From assembly GCA_964517625.1 (NCBI GenBank), contig CAZFBW010000001.1, positions 40,319 to 104,318 on the forward strand: a stretch of DNA of 64,000 nt, read 5' to 3'. The position numbers and the translations under genes were made by a program. This document shows, piece after piece, positions 4,225-54,566 of the stretch (positions within the stretch are counted from its first letter, which is position 1; the number at the start of each line of letters is the position of its first letter). This stretch comes from an uncultured Candidatus Saccharibacteria bacterium. Lineage in GTDB: Bacteria; Patescibacteriota; Minisyncoccia; Phycocordibacterales; UBA5272. The notes under the pieces are model-generated. The model was not told where the DNA came from, searched no databases, and saw nothing but the letters and a program-made list of their open reading frames with translations.

Positions 4225-4277
4225 ACAAAGTCACTCGCACAGAGTGACTTTGTCGTATAGTATCCTATACTTACTAT

Positions 4278-5237
4278 ATGCAATATATAAAGCCAATAGT
4301 TACACTTGTTGCGGTTGCAACCTTAATGCCAGAACTGGTGACAGGGAGTACAAGTCTTTTTAGTTTTTTTATTCCTATTAATTTCCTTATTAATTTTTTA
4401 GGGTATGGTATCACTGTTCTTCTTATTCGTGAGTTTTATGTGAGGTATAATCTGAACTTCTTCGGTTTGTTTTTACTTGGTATTGTATATGTTGGTATTA
4501 ATGAAGGATTACTTGCAAAAACAATTATTTTAGAAAATGGTATTCCGTGGAATTTGTTTGATAATTATGGTTATATTGTAGGAATTAGTATTCCGTGGGC
4601 ACTCGCAATGTCCGTTTGGCATTCGGTATTTTCAGTTATGTTTCCAATTATTGCGACACACTTCTTGTTTACAGAAGCAAGTAAAGATTCATGGCTTAAC
4701 AAGAAAACAATAGCATTATTCACGGCCCTGATTGCTTTTGTTAGCCTTGCAGCATTTTTTGGTCCGTTTAGGGGGACGGGGACAGGGGGACAACTTTTCG
4801 TTATTCTTGGAGGCATGGCCATACTTACATTGCTATCAGTTTGGTTATGTAGAAAGAAAGAAGAAGGAGAACAACAGCATCCAATTACTACAAAGCCGGT
4901 ATGGCTAGGGGTGAGCACAGTCATTTCTTGGACAGTGCTTCTTTGTATTGTTATGGTTGGACTAAAAGTCCCATTGCTATTATTCTTTGTTGTCTTCGTT
5001 GGAATTATTGCCACCTATGTTCATATCTTTAGAAAAAAAATAGGTATTACCAATGACACACTACTCTTGTTTATTCTCGGTGGTTATTTTCAGACAGCAG
5101 TTACTGGATTATTGATGGCCTTCTTTTTTATGCCAGCAACCTTTGGTGAACGACTACCCGCTGAAATTATTATTCTTATAATTTCTACAATACTATTACG
5201 AAAAGTATTTAAGAGACACAGAGTAGTTACTGCATAA
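4278..5237 (+). CDS. Hypothetical polytopic membrane protein (about 8 TM helices)
   Basis: 319-aa hydrophobic ORF. Leaderless-type promoter TATACT-tactat-ATG. Confidence 0.55.
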   Translation: MQYIKPIVTLVAVATLMPELVTGSTSLFSFFIPINFLINFLGYGITVLLIREFYVRYNLNFFGLFLLGIVYVGINEGLLAKTIILENGIPWNLFDNYGYIVGISIPWALAMSVWHSVFSVMFPIIATHFLFTEASKDSWLNKKTIALFTALIAFVSLAAFFGPFRGTGTGGQLFVILGGMAILTLLSVWLCRKKEEGEQQHPITTKPVWLGVSTVISWTVLLCIVMVGLKVPLLLFFVVFVGIIATYVHIFRKKIGITNDTLLLFILGGYFQTAVTGLLMAFFFMPATFGERLPAEIIILIISTILLRKVFKRHRVVTA

Positions 5238-24260: not shown

Positions 24261-24328
24261 AGGAAAATAGTACCAGAATAGGGGGAAAGCGCAATGAGGG
24301 GGAGAGAAACATGGTCGTCATTATGTTG

Positions 24329-24415
24329 CGGAGAGAGCGAGATTCGAACTCGCGGACCCAATAAAGGGTCGACAGTTTAGTAAACTGTTGATTTAAACCA
24401 CTCATCCATCTCTCC
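24329..24415 (-). tRNA. Type-II (long variable arm) tRNA, Ser-like, with apparent anticodon ACU (unusual A34)
   Basis: GGAGAGAUGGAUGAGUGGUUUAAAUCA-ACAGU-UUACUAA-ACUGU-variable arm-GCGAG-TTCGAAT-CTCGC-UCUCUCC-G. G73 discriminator. A TATAAT promoter lies about 30 nt upstream. The anticodon is read from a hand fold. Confidence 0.6.
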
Positions 24416-24465: not shown

Positions 24466-24595
24466 GCTCCTTAATTCTGCATCCTGCAAAAATATGGTTG
24501 CCCCACTCCTTCTTGTGTTGCTAGACGCAACACGTGCGAAGTGATTTGAAGCTTTTTTGTATGGAACGCTTCGCTTGCAAAAAACTTAAAATCAG

Positions 24596-24682
24596 CGGAG
24601 ACGATGGGATTTGAACCCATGAAGGGCGTAAACCCTTGCCTCGTTAGCAGTGAGGTGCCTTCGACCACTCAGCCACGTCTCC
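24596..24682 (-). tRNA. tRNA-Ser (anticodon GCU)
   Basis: Type-II tRNA. Acceptor GGAGACG/CGUCUCC, G73, anticodon loop CUGCUAA, long variable arm, T-arm ATGGG-TTCAAAT-CCCAT. Confidence 0.8.
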
Positions 24683-43807: not shown

Positions 43808-45172
43808 ATGGCCAAATCAAAAGGATCTTCACAAAAAAAGAGTGCACAGAAAAAATCTGCGACCAAAAACGCAGCAAAAAAAGTAAAAAACAAAAAGGTT
43901 GCCACACATAAAAAGAAGGCACCTCTCAAAAAGAAATCTGCGAAGAAAACCGTAAAGAAAGTCATACCAAAACCTAAGAAGCAAGCGCACAGTGTAAGTA
44001 AGAAAGCGCAAGGGAAGTCAAAAGTAAAACTTCCAGAGAAACCAAAGTACAAGCCAAAGGCATTCACCATTAAAACTGGTCCGAACAAGCCAAAGGCAGA
44101 AGTTAAAACAAAAAAAGTTCTCACGCGAGAACAAAACGAAGAAGAGTTGCTTTCCAAAGGAAAGGAACGCGGTTTCATTACGTATGATGAAATCATTAAG
44201 TATTTCCCAACGATTGAAACTGACATTTTATATCTTGAGGAACTCTATGAAAAAATAAGTGCAGCGGGCATTGATATTTTGGAAGGGGGAAACATCTTGG
44301 ACATGGATGATGACCTTGCTAAATTGGGAAGCGATAGTACGCACGACAGTATTCAAATGTATCTTCGTGAAATTGGACAATACCCACTTATTTCCGGTGA
44401 AAACGAACGAGAACTTGCAAAGCGCATTGAAAAAGGAGACAAGGAAGCGGCGGCTTTGCTTGCTAAAGCAAACTTGCGTCTCGTGGTTTCGATCGCTAAG
44501 AAATATGTCGGTCGCTCATCTGATTTGACACTCCTTGATCTTATTCAGGAAGGGAATCTTGGTTTGTTTAAGGCAGTTGAGAAATTCGATTACTCGAAAG
44601 GATTTAAGTTTTCAACCTATGCAACCTGGTGGATTCGTCAGGCAATCACGAGAGCACTTGCTGATCAGTCTCGCACCATTCGTATTCCTGTGCACATGGT
44701 AGAAACCATTGCGAAGTATAAGCAAGTTGTTCGTCGTTTGTCACAAGACCTAGGTCGTGACCCACTCGCTGAAGAAGTGGCAGTTGAAATGGGGCTTGAT
44801 GTTGAAAAAATCCACGTGATTGAAAACATTAACCAAGACACCGTGTCACTTGAAAAACCAATTGGTGATGATGATGATAAATCAACGCTTGGTGAATTTA
44901 TTGCGGACGATAAAATTCTATCACCAGATGCTGAAAGCTCACACAGAATTTTGGCTGACCAAATTAACGAAATTCTTGATGACCTTTCTCCAAAGGAACG
45001 CAAGATTGTTGAGATGCGAAATGGATTAGGTGAGTACGACGGTGTGATGCATACGCTTGAAGAAGTGGGGGCAGAGTTTGGGGTGACGCGTGAGCGTATT
45101 CGTCAAATTGAAGCAAAAGTGCATGAAAAGATTAGAAGTCACGAGAAGGCAGAACGTTTAAGAAACTACTAA
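43808..45172 (+). CDS. rpoD: RNA polymerase sigma-70 factor RpoD with a lysine-rich (histone H1-like) N-terminal extension
   Basis: Sigma70 regions 1.2-4 (…YLREIG…, [10 protein letters not shown]…). The first about 100 aa are K/A/P-rich. A terminator follows at 45175..45204. Confidence 0.9.
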
Positions 45173-45212
45173 ACAAAAAACCGCCGAATGGCGGTTTTTT
45201 TTGTTTTCCTAT

Positions 45213-45725
45213 TTAGTAGCACATGTAGTATCCACTGACATAGATGCAACTATTGCGTGGGTTGTATTGATAGTTGAAATAATGATGTCTGCCGTAATAG
45301 CTGTAATTTACGGATGGATAGTAACTGTTGTAGTAGCTTCCGTAATAGGATGGGTATGAGTACGTATTGTAGTAGTTGTACGGGTAGGTGTAGTTACTAT
45401 ACGAGTAGTTGTACGGGTAGGTGTAGTTGCTGTAGGTATAGTCGTAGGTGTATGGGTATGTATACGAGTATGAGTTGTTATATGGATAACTGTAATTGTA
45501 ATAATTGCTGTACGTATTGTTGTAGTACGGATAGTATCCGTAGTTGTAGCCGTACTGGTTATAGCAATCGTAATTGTAGCCTACGGCATAGGCGCAATTA
45601 TTATAATTTGCATAGCCATATCCAGTTGTTGGATATCCGTAATTGTATGTTTGTGCAGAAGTAAAAAGCACGCTACTTATAAAAAGTGAAGAGGACACAA
45701 TGGCAAGTGAAAGTATCTTTTTCAT
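45213..45725 (-). CDS. Secreted tyrosine/asparagine-rich low-complexity repeat protein (170 aa, about 35% Tyr, 4 Cys)
   Basis: Signal peptide MKKILSLAIVSSSLFISSVLFTSA, followed by YNY/YTYPY/SNYTYPYNYSY repeats. Promoter TTGACG-17-TAGGAT on the minus strand. Confidence 0.6.
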   Translation of the reverse strand: MKKILSLAIVSSSLFISSVLFTSAQTYNYGYPTTGYGYANYNNCAYAVGYNYDCYNQYGYNYGYYPYYNNTYSNYYNYSYPYNNSYSYTYPYTYDYTYSNYTYPYNYSYSNYTYPYNYYNTYSYPSYYGSYYNSYYPSVNYSYYGRHHYFNYQYNPRNSCIYVSGYYMCY

Positions 45726-45808
45726 ACCCGTATCCTATTCCAAAAAAATGGGGTCGTCAAGAAAGGGTGAATAGACAAAATCGCTTTTTTGTGGTAGAAT
45801 TGCTACTT

Positions 45809-46780
45809 ATGTTAATCGACCACATTACACTCTCAATTAAGGCTGGAAAAGGCGGTGACGGCGTTGTTCGTTGGCGTCGCGAGAAAGGTATTCCTTATGG
45901 TGGACCAGCAGGAGGGGATGGTGGAAAGGGTGGTGATGTGTATTTCCGTGTTGTGCGCGACATTCAAGCGCTTTCAACGTATAAGCATAAAACTGAATGG
46001 GAAGCAGAAGGTGGTGAATCTGGTAAAAAGCGAAGTATGCACGGCAGAGGTGCCGAGGATTTGTATATGAATGTTCCTGTTGGAGCTGTGATTCATAATC
46101 GCGAATACGATATTGATTACGAGTGCATAGAAGATGGGCAAGAAATTTTAGTGCTTCGTGGTGGAAAAGGAGGACTTGGAAATGAAAATTTTAAGACATC
46201 AACGAATCGCGCACCAATGGAATTTACAAAAGGTGAGAAGGGTGAATTTGCGACATTTGATATTGAACTTCGTTTGATTGCTGATGTTGGATTAATTGGT
46301 CTTCCAAATGCAGGCAAGTCATCTCTCCTTAATGCGCTCACTCGAGCGGGTGCAAAGGTTGGTGCGTATGCGTTCACGACGCTTGAACCTAACTTGGGCG
46401 CATATTTCGGATACGTCCTTGCGGATGTTCCAGGTCTTATTGAAGGAGCAAGTGAAGGCAAGGGGTTGGGACACAAGTTTTTGCGCCACATCAAGCGCAC
46501 CTCCATGCTTGTGCACCTTGTTTCTGCGGAAAACGAAGACGTTGCACTTGCATATACCACAATTCGAAAAGAACTTGGCAAATATGATGATGAACTTTTA
46601 ACAAAACGTGAAATCGTTGTGCTTTCAAAAACCGACACGGTTCCTGATGATGTGCTTCTAAAAAAGCAGAAGGCGCTACAAAAAGCATGTGGGAAGGACG
46701 TTGTACTCCTTTCTCTTTTTCAAGATGAAACAGTTAAAGCATTTGGTGATATTTTAGTGAAAGAATTGAAAGCGAAATAA
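45809..46780 (+). CDS. obg: GTPase Obg
   Basis: Glycine-rich Obg fold (GGDGGKGGDV) and a GLPNAGKSS G-domain. Extended -10 TGgTAGAAT lies 8 nt before the ATG. Confidence 0.85.
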   Translation: MLIDHITLSIKAGKGGDGVVRWRREKGIPYGGPAGGDGGKGGDVYFRVVRDIQALSTYKHKTEWEAEGGESGKKRSMHGRGAEDLYMNVPVGAVIHNREYDIDYECIEDGQEILVLRGGKGGLGNENFKTSTNRAPMEFTKGEKGEFATFDIELRLIADVGLIGLPNAGKSSLLNALTRAGAKVGAYAFTTLEPNLGAYFGYVLADVPGLIEGASEGKGLGHKFLRHIKRTSMLVHLVSAENEDVALAYTTIRKELGKYDDELLTKREIVVLSKTDTVPDDVLLKKQKALQKACGKDVVLLSLFQDETVKAFGDILVKELKAK

Positions 46781-46782
46781 GA

Positions 46783-47376
46783 TTACTCTCCATTCAAAAT
46801 ATCTTTCTTTGCTCCTGGTGTAAAAATACCGAGATGGCGCGTGTTTAACCCCATGCAACGAATAAGAGTGTACGCAACAGAGTTGGAATTGATTGTTTCT
46901 CCGGTCACCTTTACGCCAAGTGGTGGGTAGAGGAGTTTTTTTTCATTGATTTTTTCTTTACAGGTGCGCGCTTTTTCCCAAAGCATAAGCATGTCCTCCT
47001 TACTTCCTGTGGTGAGAACAAAACCAGGGTCATTGTTCGAGGAAAAATAGTTTCGTGAACCGTTAAATTCCCACACGACAAGCTTATCGGTGTCGCTTGC
47101 CCCGACATATTTCCATATTCCCGTTAGGGCGTCCGTTGCAAGTCCGTGCAGTTCGTAAACAACGTTGTTTTTTTCGTCACGCAAAACAAGATAGTTGTGG
47201 CCAGCAAGCCCTAAGAGAAGTGGGTACTGAATTTTTTGAATACTCCATTTGCCAAATGCAGGGGTTGGTGTCGGGTGGGTGATTTCGTTGTTAGTGAGAA
47301 TGTATAAAAATAGAACAAAGAAAACACTGAGGAGTGCATCGCGAATGTGTTTATGAGAAGAGAAATAGGCAAACAT
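46783..47376 (-). CDS. Hypothetical protein with an N-terminal TM anchor
   Basis: 197-aa ORF. Confidence 0.4.
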   Translation of the reverse strand: MFAYFSSHKHIRDALLSVFFVLFLYILTNNEITHPTPTPAFGKWSIQKIQYPLLLGLAGHNYLVLRDEKNNVVYELHGLATDALTGIWKYVGASDTDKLVVWEFNGSRNYFSSNNDPGFVLTTGSKEDMLMLWEKARTCKEKINEKKLLYPPLGVKVTGETINSNSVAYTLIRCMGLNTRHLGIFTPGAKKDILNGE

Positions 47377-52584: not shown

Positions 52585-52708
52585 ATTTTATATTTAGTAA
52601 AAGAAAAACGGCTTAGCGCTTTGAAAGCCGCTAAGCCGTTGTTGTTTCGGGTCGCGTTGCACGACTCGAATGTTGTTTGGGTTTGCGTTGCGCAAACCCG
52701 TAGAGCCC

Positions 52709-54376
52709 TTAGAACGCCTCGAGCTCCTTCGTGCGGAGGACCTCTTCGATCCTGTCGGCGAACACTTGGTTGATGACCGTGTTGCCGTCCGTTTCGTCGA
52801 GGTAGGCGACATACGCGCCACCGTTCATGCCTTGCGCACGCAGGGTCACGACCGCCTGACGGTCGGGAACCAGCGCGATTTCCTGGACGCCGTGCACGTC
52901 GTTGACGTACACCATCTTCTTGGCCAGGACCTTGGCCTTGCCCTCGAACGTGGGGCGTTCGAAGGTGACCTTCTCGCCGTCGACGAGGTACTTGTGACCG
53001 CTGGCCGAACGGCGCACCACCTTGTGGGCGGGGCTACCACCCTTGTTCCGGATCACCACGTGGATGCCCGGATTGAACAGCTTGGCCACGTGGTCGTTGT
53101 CGACCTCCAGCACCTCGAGACCTTCCCCGCGCTCGTTGTAGACGACCACCGGGTTTTCTTCGATGCTGGCCATCAGCTTGGCCTGGCGTTCGCCCGCCTC
53201 ACGCGCCTTGCGTTCGGCTTCATCAGCCTTGCGCTTGGCGCTCATCTTGCTCTGGGCCGCGTTCAGCTTGGCCCTGATCACGTCCTCCTCCGCGGTGAAG
53301 CGGGGGTTGGCGCTGAGCAACTTGGCGACCTTCTGCTTGAAGATCACCGCCTGCACGGCGTTCATGCCACCGTGCAGGATGAGGATGTCGTCGTTGCCGA
53401 CGACCTCCACTTTCTCCGTCTCGCTCTTGAGCGAGACGGTGGTGAACAGCATCTGGTCCTTCCCGGACCTGCCCTTCGTGCCGATGACGATGAAACCGTC
53501 GTCGGCCGTCTGGATCAGGTTGTAGAAGAACTCGAGCGACTTGTCCTGCTGGTGGATGTCCCAGAGGCAGCGGTTGCCGCCGTCGGGCATGTGCAGGTAG
53601 GCGTTCGTGGGCACGTAGCCCCAGTCCTTCCCGCCGTACTTGGCGGAGCGGAACAGGGTAATGACCACCTTGCCAGCCTTGACCTCGAAGGAGATCTGGC
53701 CGGTCTTGCCCTTGTCGGTCGTCGCCTCGTTCTCGAGGACGAATTCCGTGACCACGCTCGCCGACTTGGCGGGCGCGGTGTTGGAGTTCGTCTTGGCGCT
53801 GACGCGCTCGTCCTTCTCGATGTCGATCAGGGTGTTCTGCACCACGACTTCACCGCCGAAGTACTCGCGCAGGTAGCCGATGATGGCGTCCTGGGCTTTC
53901 TTCACCTGCGGGTTGGGGGCGGTCGACTGGAAGCCGGGCTTCGAGAGCCAGGCAGCCTTCACGAACGTCTCCTTCCGGAGACCCATCAGGGGGTGGTCCT
54001 CGAAGGTGTACCCTTCGTGGGTGTACCCTTCGTGGGCGTGCAGGTAGACCACCGTGAGCTCGCGCTTCGTGCCGTCCTTGTTGGGACGGTACTCCAGGTC
54101 GAGGTGCACGGAGGGCTTGTCGCCGCCCGGGAACGTGTACGGTCCGGGCAGGCCAGCGATGAAGGACTCCTTGTCGGAGCTCTTCCCCGCGTTCTGCTCG
54201 ATGTACCAGGCCGGACCGGCCGCACTGCGAGCCTTGTCCTTCTGGGCCTTGACGGCCCTCTTGTTGTCCGCGACGGCCTTGGCGGCGGTTTGCCGCTCCG
54301 CGATCGTCTTGGGCGAACCCTTGCCGTTGCCACCCTTGTTGCTGTTGCCTTTGTTGCCGGATTTGGCCTGGGCCAT
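52709..54376 (-). CDS. Hypothetical 556-aa protein on a GC-rich island (about 64% GC), with a Gly/Lys-rich N-terminus and a HEGYTHEGYT repeat
   Basis: Normal amino-acid composition on the minus strand only; the plus-strand 575-aa ORF is the usual L/V/G/R-rich antisense artefact. A Shine-Dalgarno site (AAGGAGAA) lies 7 nt before the ATG at 54376. A TTGACA -35 is at 54518..54523 on the minus strand. Confidence 0.65.
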   Translation of the reverse strand: MAQAKSGNKGNSNKGGNGKGSPKTIAERQTAAKAVADNKRAVKAQKDKARSAAGPAWYIEQNAGKSSDKESFIAGLPGPYTFPGGDKPSVHLDLEYRPNKDGTKRELTVVYLHAHEGYTHEGYTFEDHPLMGLRKETFVKAAWLSKPGFQSTAPNPQVKKAQDAIIGYLREYFGGEVVVQNTLIDIEKDERVSAKTNSNTAPAKSASVVTEFVLENEATTDKGKTGQISFEVKAGKVVITLFRSAKYGGKDWGYVPTNAYLHMPDGGNRCLWDIHQQDKSLEFFYNLIQTADDGFIVIGTKGRSGKDQMLFTTVSLKSETEKVEVVGNDDILILHGGMNAVQAVIFKQKVAKLLSANPRFTAEEDVIRAKLNAAQSKMSAKRKADEAERKAREAGERQAKLMASIEENPVVVYNERGEGLEVLEVDNDHVAKLFNPGIHVVIRNKGGSPAHKVVRRSASGHKYLVDGEKVTFERPTFEGKAKVLAKKMVYVNDVHGVQEIALVPDRQAVVTLRAQGMNGGAYVAYLDETDGNTVINQVFADRIEEVLRTKELEAF

Positions 54377-54566
54377 GTGATTCTCCTTGTGTCGTAAGTA
54401 GCGGGGGCCGAAATTGGCCTCCCGCATGGTGCTATGGGTTGCTTGCGGTGTTCAAAGTACTGCTACTACAAGGGCCTGGCAAGAACCGTAGTTCTCCCAA
54501 GCCTCGTACTTCTACCCTATATTATTGCATATTTTAACACTTTTGTCAATACCACACACACACTCC

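Follow-up and report, generated by a model that had tools for sequence, protein, structure and literature searches.

Secreted, low-complexity proteins rich in tyrosine are known as wall or adhesive proteins of plants, apicomplexans, diatoms and animals, and tyrosine-rich proteins are also found in the spore coats of Bacillus. Here, we studied a tyrosine-rich gene in a 64,000-nucleotide stretch of DNA from an uncultured bacterium deposited as Candidatus Saccharibacteria (contig CAZFBW010000001.1; the whole stretch is called the window below). The open reading frame (ORF) at 45213..45725 on the minus strand runs from ATG to TAA and encodes 170 amino acids, just as a preliminary description of this DNA had reported. 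Its product belongs to an unnamed family of Patescibacteria proteins and, as far as our searches show, a bacterial family that is Sec-exported, nearly charge-free, disulfide-capped and 24-40% Tyr has not been described before. We propose, at a probability of roughly 0.5, that the product is exported and serves outside the cell as a "material" protein with a structural or adhesive role in the envelope or at the cell surface.

Among the described systems, the CotC, CotU and CotG proteins of B. subtilis are small, contain ~30% Tyr and form part of an insoluble, cross-linked protective layer (PMC7944565). However, they are produced in the mother-cell cytoplasm, have no signal peptide, are rich in Lys and Asp, and carry no Cys loops. 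No similarity to them emerged from a phmmer search of 5.8 billion proteins, which gave no match, or from profile searches, which returned only Patescibacteria-type sequences. AC3362 is a Tyr-rich secreted cell-surface protein of the attaching diatom Amphora coffeaeformis (PMC4220933); it is eukaryotic, and no relation was detected. Plant extensins and the Eimeria proteins GAM56 and GAM82 are secreted wall proteins, the YxY-type tyrosines of which function through isodityrosine or dityrosine (PMC2726925). Both are eukaryotic; extensins are defined by glycomodules of serine and four hydroxyprolines (Ser-Hyp4) and by basic residues, which the window protein lacks, and the GAM proteins, unlike the window protein, are proteolytically processed. 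The Ser-Pro(3-5) glycomodule (SPPP) was found nowhere in the window protein, in which Pro occurs only singly (YPY).

Sticker-and-spacer low-complexity domains, such as those of GLFG nucleoporins, FUS-like domains and mussel foot proteins, are strongly cohesive or adhesive. The GLFG, FUS-like and mussel foot protein (mfp-3/5) sequences share with our family the aromatic stickers, the Gly/Ser/Asn/Gln/Thr spacers, few or no charges in the GLFG type, and disorder when alone. In contrast, they are intracellular eukaryotic proteins or cationic adhesives modified with 3,4-dihydroxyphenylalanine (DOPA), whereas the family studied here is bacterial, Sec-exported and disulfide-capped, so that the likeness is one of composition (Tyr 24-40%, K+E below 0.5% in the family) and not of homology.

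The tyrosine-rich gene and its product

The features of the gene are as follows, with the evidence for each in brackets.

45213..45725, minus strand: coding sequence of the Tyr-rich secreted protein, stop codon included (ORF, family hidden Markov model (HMM), BLASTP, hhalign, metagenome contigs)
45654..45725, minus strand: predicted signal peptide, residues 1-24, MKKILSLAIVSSSLFISSVLFTSA (sequence layout, AlphaFold2 helix, invariant Ala24)
45558..45596, minus strand: N-terminal Cys loop C44-x8-C53, CAYAVGYNYDC (common to the closest orthologue, L004, which reads NNCAYTTWYNYDC)
45249..45557, minus strand: Tyr-rich low-complexity region, about residues 57-159, with degenerate repeats of the YTYPYNY type (composition, Tandem Repeats Finder (TRF), AlphaFold2 confidence)
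45216..45248, minus strand: C-terminal Cys hairpin C160-x8-C169-Y, CIYVSGYYMCY (114/123 family sequences, AlphaFold2, alignment to the consensus)
45732..45760, minus strand: sigma-70-type promoter TTGACG-17-TAGGAT (scan and comparison of orthologous loci)
45171..45206, no single strand: bidirectional intrinsic terminator of rpoD and the Tyr-rich gene (plus-strand scan, minus-strand RNA fold)

On either side, the gene is flanked by rpoD (43808-45172, plus strand) and obg (ATG at 45809, plus strand). The N-terminus, MKKILSLAIVSSSLFISSVLFTSA followed by QTYNY, shows the Sec-type n/h/c layout with two Lys, an 18-residue hydrophobic core and a T-S-A motif, and the -3/-1 rule predicts that signal peptidase I cuts after TSA (Ala24). 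The secretion claimed in the preliminary description is further supported by a helix modelled by AlphaFold2 at residues 2-19 and by the Ala at position -1, which is invariant across 54 family sequences. Covalent anchors were sought in the window protein sequence, and there was no lipobox Cys near the cleavage site, no LPXTG motif and no C-terminal transmembrane segment; the C-terminus (...GYYMCY) has no hydrophobic tail. Taken together, the conserved signal peptide, the paired Cys and the lack of a lipoprotein or sortase retention signal strongly indicate that the protein is exported.

The mature part (146 aa, ~18 kDa, isoelectric point ~6.6) contains 58 Tyr (39.7%), 23 Asn, 15 Ser, 10 Thr, 9 Gly, 9 Pro and 4 Cys, while charged residues and His are limited to two D, two R and two H, with zero K or E. 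The Tyr content had been put at about 35%, which matches the whole protein (34%). Tyr makes up 3.5% of the 38 other long ORFs of the window, an 11-fold enrichment for the Tyr-rich protein, and a density of at least 10 Tyr per 40-residue stretch is reached in no other window ORF. Adjacent YY pairs are depleted compared with shuffled sequences (z = -4.8), and the tyrosines are therefore spaced as YxY or YxxY. Two copies of the 9-mer SNYTYPYNY are present, one continued by SY and the other by YN, so that the recurrence reported earlier for the longer SNYTYPYNYSY holds for its first nine residues. At the DNA level, TRF detected a degenerate 18-nt repeat at 45372-45442 (3.4 copies, 67% matches).

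The four Cys form two pairs near the ends of the protein, as originally noticed, namely NNCAYAVGYNYDC and SCIYVSGYYMCY, and both have the C-x8-C spacing. The Cys count is even in 53/54 family members, as expected of disulfides in an exported protein, and on this basis the N-terminal loop probably holds a disulfide. In the AlphaFold2 model of the window protein, the C-terminal beta hairpin spans residues 160-169 with a predicted local distance difference test (pLDDT) score of ~79, and residues 40-155 stay below 50.

A syntenic family in Patescibacteria

The window protein alone led to no relatives. A phmmer search against 5.8 billion proteins gave no match at E <= 0.01, a metagenome scan with the window protein as query and a sequence search of the PDB found no relative, and neither Pfam (E <= 10) nor NCBIfam (E <= 1) had a matching model; the protein was also missing from an exact-sequence cluster look-up, though identical copies sit on metagenome contigs. 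The family was reached instead by fetching 80 genome loci through the neighbouring Obg protein and then collecting syntenic ORFs. The closest Obg loci came from Patescibacteria metagenome-assembled genomes (MAGs) labelled Paceibacteria, Nomurabacteria, Parcubacteria or (mis)labelled Saccharibacteria, and in 21 of the fetched loci the corresponding position was occupied by a Tyr-rich ORF of the same orientation that encodes a signal peptide. The order dnaG-rpoD> <Tyr-rich obg> <hyp197 <gatB was kept, with the Tyr-rich gene convergent with rpoD and divergent from obg. Moreover, ten further metagenome loci found by a smaller-alignment scan all showed the same synteny, bringing the total to at least 31 loci. 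Homologues, which the preliminary description had proposed to look for in related genomes, are thus found through synteny with Obg, while the single-sequence search stays empty.

A profile of the 22 syntenic proteins retrieved 58 clusters among the 5.8 billion proteins, a lower bound for the family; their members are 137-233 aa in length, match no Pfam domain and carry either no name or the label "hypothetical protein". When 1.84 billion representatives were searched exhaustively with an HMM, ~55 full-length family representatives were returned, and the other matches cover only an optional 4-Cys module, CTxDAxxCPxGTxVGRxGxxCxFxCP, that is absent from the window protein. The ~123 distinct family sequences all come from Paceibacteria/Nomurabacteria-like MAGs, and none of them carries an enzyme fusion or a catalytic domain. 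Pfam also had nothing for the typical members P0003 and P0036, and we found no literature on Tyr-rich proteins in Patescibacteria or the candidate phyla radiation (CPR). It had been stated that no bacterial family of this kind was known; this holds for curated families, but an unnamed Patescibacteria family of at least 58 clusters, all labelled hypothetical, does exist. Its members (e.g. KBC21_00045 and RLZZ308_476; P0002-P0059) are homologous to the window protein and positional orthologues of it, sharing the signal peptide, the charge-free composition rich in Tyr, Asn, Thr and Ser, the C-x8-C end hairpin, the leaderless-type promoter and the slot between rpoD and obg.

In the same neighbourhood, most genomes of the clade keep, directly downstream of obg, a 197-aa protein (46783-47376, minus strand; 45-56% identity) that has a membrane anchor at its N-terminus and belongs to no Pfam family. 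Small unrelated genes lie between the Tyr-rich gene and obg in some relatives (L012 2853-3332 and L015 2925-3407, both minus strand), and one of these genes is a NUDIX-like ORF starting MAHIHTLPGQID. The slot thus tolerates insertions, while the Tyr-rich gene stays beside the rpoD terminator. The inserted genes were considered as functional partners and dismissed, since they are unrelated to each other.

The composition and distribution of the family bear on one alternative reading, an oxidatively cross-linked wall or coat protein. Here, YxY tyrosines would be joined as dityrosine or isodityrosine by a peroxidase, laccase, tyrosinase or ambient oxidants into an insoluble protective layer. Known Tyr-rich wall proteins work in this way (PMC2726925, PMC7944565; extensins). 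The extreme Tyr content, the dominant YxY spacing with its avoidance of adjacent YY, and the origin of the family MAGs, which record titles place in oxic fresh and ground waters, all fit such a product. Nevertheless, no oxidase gene stands beside the Tyr-rich gene in any locus or was seen among the scanned ORFs of the window, and no sequence similarity to known cross-linked proteins was found. Patescibacteria generally have very small repertoires of redox enzymes, which also weighs against cross-linking, and we consider this reading rather unlikely.

Constraint on the gene

Several lines of comparison support the Tyr-rich frame. The window protein gave E = 4e-22 in BLASTP against the L004 orthologue (54% identity over 105 aa, composition-adjusted), E = 6e-12 at 97.5% probability over residues 1-170 in hhalign against A4, the profile of typical members, and E = 1.6e-14 in hmmsearch with the family HMM, which has a single match in each locus and likewise a single one in the window. 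The 170-codon frame of the window gene contains no frameshift or stop. Three independent metagenome contigs encode an identical protein among the same neighbours, so that the Tyr-rich protein is the same in four independent samples, while the flanking genes differ by 1-2% among samples. Within the gene, the strain variants L001 and L003 depart from the window sequence at just two sites, 45417 and 45420, where the changes are synonymous and fall on third codon positions. The preliminary description had suggested looking for variation in repeat length between strains; none appeared in the three other samples. On these comparisons, the gene is real and evidently under constraint.

In 22/22 loci, the sense frame is free of stops from end to end, whereas the antisense frames are interrupted in every orthologue, which upholds the earlier preference for the Tyr frame over the ORF on the opposite strand. 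That ORF, rich in Cys, Ser and Arg (45314-45664, plus strand), was rejected as a coding candidate, and the differences at 45417 and 45420, silent in the Tyr frame, fall on its second codon positions and would alter its product. Its presence is explained by the runs of TAC and TAT codons, which leave two antisense frames free of stops. An RNA element was likewise discarded, as an Rfam scan of 44.5-46.5 kb yielded only sub-threshold noise.

Family architecture and predicted structure

In typical members, the signal peptide leads into a variable Tyr-rich stretch, in which extra Cys loops may be present, and then into a core, YxYTxGCYTYYYNGxTRxxSxxSYNC. After the core come Tyr-rich linkers of the YTYP or YQY type, the motif YYTYxYSNGSWYP, a stretch rich in Tyr, Asn and Gly, and a C-terminal CYWQNGYQVC[YQ]. 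The pooled mature sequences contain Y 24%, T 14%, N 14%, S 11%, G 8%, Q 5.5%, P 4.7%, C 4.2%, K 0.2% and E 0.1%, with a median D+E+K+R of 2.9%. In the AlphaFold2 model of the typical member P0003, the core (residues 60-83) folds into a three-stranded sheet with a pLDDT of ~90. Two hairpins follow, one at the NGSW motif (114-125) and one at the C-terminus (158-167), and all other residues are low-confidence coil. Overall, the models suggest short disulfide-stapled hairpins joined by disordered Tyr-rich linkers.

The optional 4-Cys module has ~27 residues with the pattern C-T-x-[DE]-A-x-x-C-P-[DN]-G-[ST]-x-V-G-R-x-G-x-x-C-x-F-x-x-C-P and no Pfam model. It is present in P0007, P0015-P0026 and other family members, as well as in hundreds of other secreted or membrane-anchored Patescibacteria proteins (e.g. 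P0073, P0078, P0107, P0141 and P0185), and occurs in tandem arrays in which as many as 11 stretches match. In the carrier P0119, it is accompanied by Kazal and Hint domains.

These structural data raise the question of a secreted bioactive peptide, that is, a bacteriocin-like toxin, protease inhibitor or signal in which the hairpins are active and the Tyr stretch is a spacer or pro-region. The protein is small, secreted and disulfide-stapled, some carriers of the 4-Cys module also have Kazal inhibitor domains (P0119), and the top Foldseek hits in the PDB were pacifastin-type inhibitors of 35 residues. However, no Foldseek match was significant (best E = 2.6), so that these hits are at chance level, and no immunity, transporter or processing gene lies nearby in the loci fetched. 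The family is also single-copy, strictly vertical and syntenic among housekeeping genes, unlike toxin loci, and is without the charge or amphipathicity typical of membrane-active peptides. A bioactive peptide is therefore quite improbable in our judgement.

The window protein lacks the family core

Among the 123 family sequences, the core Cys loop is present in 116, the C-terminal hairpin, taken as C-x(7-12)-C ending at most 2 residues from the protein end, in 114, and the G-x-W motif in 90. The window protein has only the C-terminal hairpin of these three, which aligns to the consensus CYYxxGYYxCQ, and is one of only ~7/123 members without the core Cys loop; the NGSW hairpin is absent as well. 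Its Tyr fraction is the highest of the 123 sequences (0.40; the next is 0.34 and the median 0.24). The N-terminal 60 residues including the C-x8-C loop are common to the window protein and L004, and L004 retains the core. Where other members have the Cys-loop core and the NGSW hairpin, the Tyr-rich region of the window protein is aligned: the stretch corresponding to the core reads YGYNYGYYPYYNNTYSNYY, with Tyr replacing Cys, and YQYTEGCYVYNYD of L004 corresponds to YSYT---YPYTYD or YGYNYGYYPYY, in which the cysteines are replaced, followed by the YTYPYNY repeats. As judged from these alignments, the window protein is a divergent orthologue rather than a typical member. The comparison shows that its lineage has lost the folded core and expanded the Tyr repeats, keeping the signal peptide, both terminal loops, the promoter and the terminator. 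This suggests that composition and the terminal hairpin, rather than the core fold, carry the function.

The loss of the core also bears on a possible glycan-binding adhesin. Small disulfide-stapled beta modules and strands rich in Tyr, Asn, Gln and Thr would offer flat aromatic-polar faces, and these might stack on polysaccharides such as the peptidoglycan of the cell itself or of its host, capsule or extracellular polymeric substances in the manner of the carbohydrate-binding module CBM1, and the protein might thereby tether an episymbiont to its host or anchor itself in the wall. In the predicted models, typical members resemble CBM1-type modules, which are three-stranded sheets or hairpins of ~25-36 residues with Tyr/Trp/Gln/Asn faces ending in Cys-X: the modelled core is a 25-residue three-stranded sheet (pLDDT ~90), accompanied by a Tyr/Trp/Gln/Asn hairpin that ends in Cys-X. 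The family composition fits sugar-binding surfaces, and Patescibacteria are mostly surface-attached symbionts, which we counted in favour. On the other hand, there was no Pfam match to CBM_1, another CBM or a lectin even at E = 10, and Foldseek gave nothing significant (best E = 2.6). Since the window protein has no core module, binding in this organism would be left to the terminal loops alone. Both glycan binding and the tethering or anchoring role built on it are therefore put forward tentatively and look doubtful to us.

Alternatively, the window gene might be a decaying remnant that lost its core and drifted to low-complexity repeats with no function left. Its place among the few members without the core Cys loop and the NGSW hairpin would fit, and the repeats resemble slippage products. 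Against this, the gene retains an intact 170-codon frame with its signal peptide and both Cys loops, as well as an intact promoter and terminator; four samples have an identical protein despite 1-2% flank divergence, and both differences in the gene are synonymous. We regard decay as highly improbable.

Expression signals

The preliminary description had assigned the gene its own promoter, TTGACG-17-TAGGAT, 6 nt before the ATG. The promoter is present and conserved, but it implies a leaderless transcript rather than an ordinary promoter with a leader. The -10 box TAGGAT ends 6 nt before the ATG, and transcription usually begins ~7 nt past the -10 box; the mRNA would therefore be leaderless or have a leader of at most 2 nt. 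In 16/22 orthologous loci, a promoter matching at least 9/12 consensus positions has its -10 box ending 6-9 nt from the ATG (typically TTGACC-16-TAGAAT), compared with 1.5% of random ATGs in the same loci. We also considered TAGGAT as a Shine-Dalgarno sequence (AGGA) and rejected it, since the orthologues have TAGAAT, TATAAT or TACAAT at this place together with a -35 box 16-17 nt upstream.

A strict search of the window for the same promoter-ATG geometry returned the Tyr-rich gene alone, and a looser search added obg and one ORF. As far as these signals indicate, leaderless starts are not general in the window, and its other genes have ordinary leaders. For obg, TAGACA-17-(TG)TAGAAT ends 8 nt before the ATG at 45809 (region 45772-45811, plus strand) with no Shine-Dalgarno sequence between, so that it looks leaderless; the ORF starting at 4278 (plus strand, region ~4240-4280) has a -10 box 6 nt upstream.

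Downstream, the minus-strand RNA folds 9 nt past the stop into a GC-rich hairpin (-16.9 kcal/mol, z = -5.0) followed by the U-run UUUUUUGUUU, and this hairpin is the same palindrome that ends rpoD on the other strand. TAC accounts for 67% of the Tyr codons, compared with a background of 45% (p = 0.0013), which is compatible with selection for efficient decoding by tRNA-Tyr(GUA).

With regard to Ser codons, AGT and AGC are preferred in the Tyr-rich gene (50% vs 26% background). As a separate observation, ARAGORN called a tRNA-Ser with the anticodon ACT (A34) at 24328-24415 on the minus strand. A canonical tRNA-Ser(GCT) lies 180 nt away at 24595-24682, and its stems differ throughout from those of the first. 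Besides tRNA-Arg(ACG), A34 tRNAs are unusual in bacteria.

Proposed role at the cell surface

Given the non-catalytic content of the protein and the housekeeping neighbours, function had to be deduced from protein anatomy. We propose that the protein acts outside the cell as a material, structural or adhesive, in the envelope or at the cell surface. Its own near-consensus sigma-70 promoter would give an mRNA that has no leader, or one of no more than 2 nt, and that stops at the terminator common with rpoD. The product would be exported through Sec and cut after Ala24, giving a nearly uncharged mature protein of ~18 kDa with 40% Tyr and spacers of Asn, Ser, Thr, Gly and Pro. Both ends would be held by C-x8-C disulfide loops, the C-terminal one forming the conserved beta hairpin, and the middle would be intrinsically disordered when alone. 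Spaced Tyr "stickers" without charge repulsion could then give strong cohesion, and through self-association or sticking to polymers of the envelope or host surface the protein may become part of a coat, glue or matrix outside the membrane.

Several points weigh against this proposal. Expression, location, self-assembly and binding are all deduced for a predicted material protein. The neighbours rpoD, obg and gatB are housekeeping genes and the inserted genes are mutually unrelated, so that the context is uninformative on function. Disorder in an AlphaFold2 model carries little weight when the sequence is of low complexity and its alignment shallow, and the TAC bias could stem from repeat homogenisation, not from expression level. 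Loss of the best-conserved core could mean gene decay in the window lineage, against which stand the intact frame, signal peptide, promoter and terminal hairpin of a protein identical in four samples. Finally, the protein may have a specific ligand, or a signalling or antimicrobial role.

We also consider a bolder form of the proposal, which is speculative and in our view has a small chance of being right. The protein would be a clade-specific, strongly expressed, leaderless and Sec-exported "tyrosine glue", a charge-free sticker-and-spacer protein with disulfide hairpins as caps, which condenses outside the cell as a cohesive gel or coat.

Other features of the window

The region 52600-54430, just downstream of infB and rbfA, has a GC content of 0.556, compared with ~0.42 elsewhere in the window, and may be horizontally acquired DNA. 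It includes a 572-aa ORF (52709-54427, minus strand) with no Pfam match, which is mirrored by a 575-aa stop-free antisense frame.

Significance for Patescibacteria

Patescibacteria make up a large share of bacterial diversity, and their envelope building and host attachment are poorly understood; most of their secreted proteins are without annotation. They are thought to scavenge amino acids, for which a Tyr-rich protein is costly, and the protein therefore likely matters for the cell surface. Being single-copy, vertical, exported and extreme in composition, the family offers an easily synthesised candidate for work on attachment, envelope and oxidative protection, and the conserved -10 box beside the ATG offers a testable case of leaderless expression in the phylum. 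As a natural, nearly charge-free, Tyr-based extracellular low-complexity protein, it may also interest researchers in protein materials and phase separation. If the tyrosine glue were real, a coat of it, cross-linked or glycan-bound, could mediate host attachment or protect ultra-small cells. It would then be the counterpart, in bacteria and outside the cell, of Tyr materials of the FG-nucleoporin, prion-like or mussel type, and the window organism, having given up the folded core altogether, would represent the extreme case.

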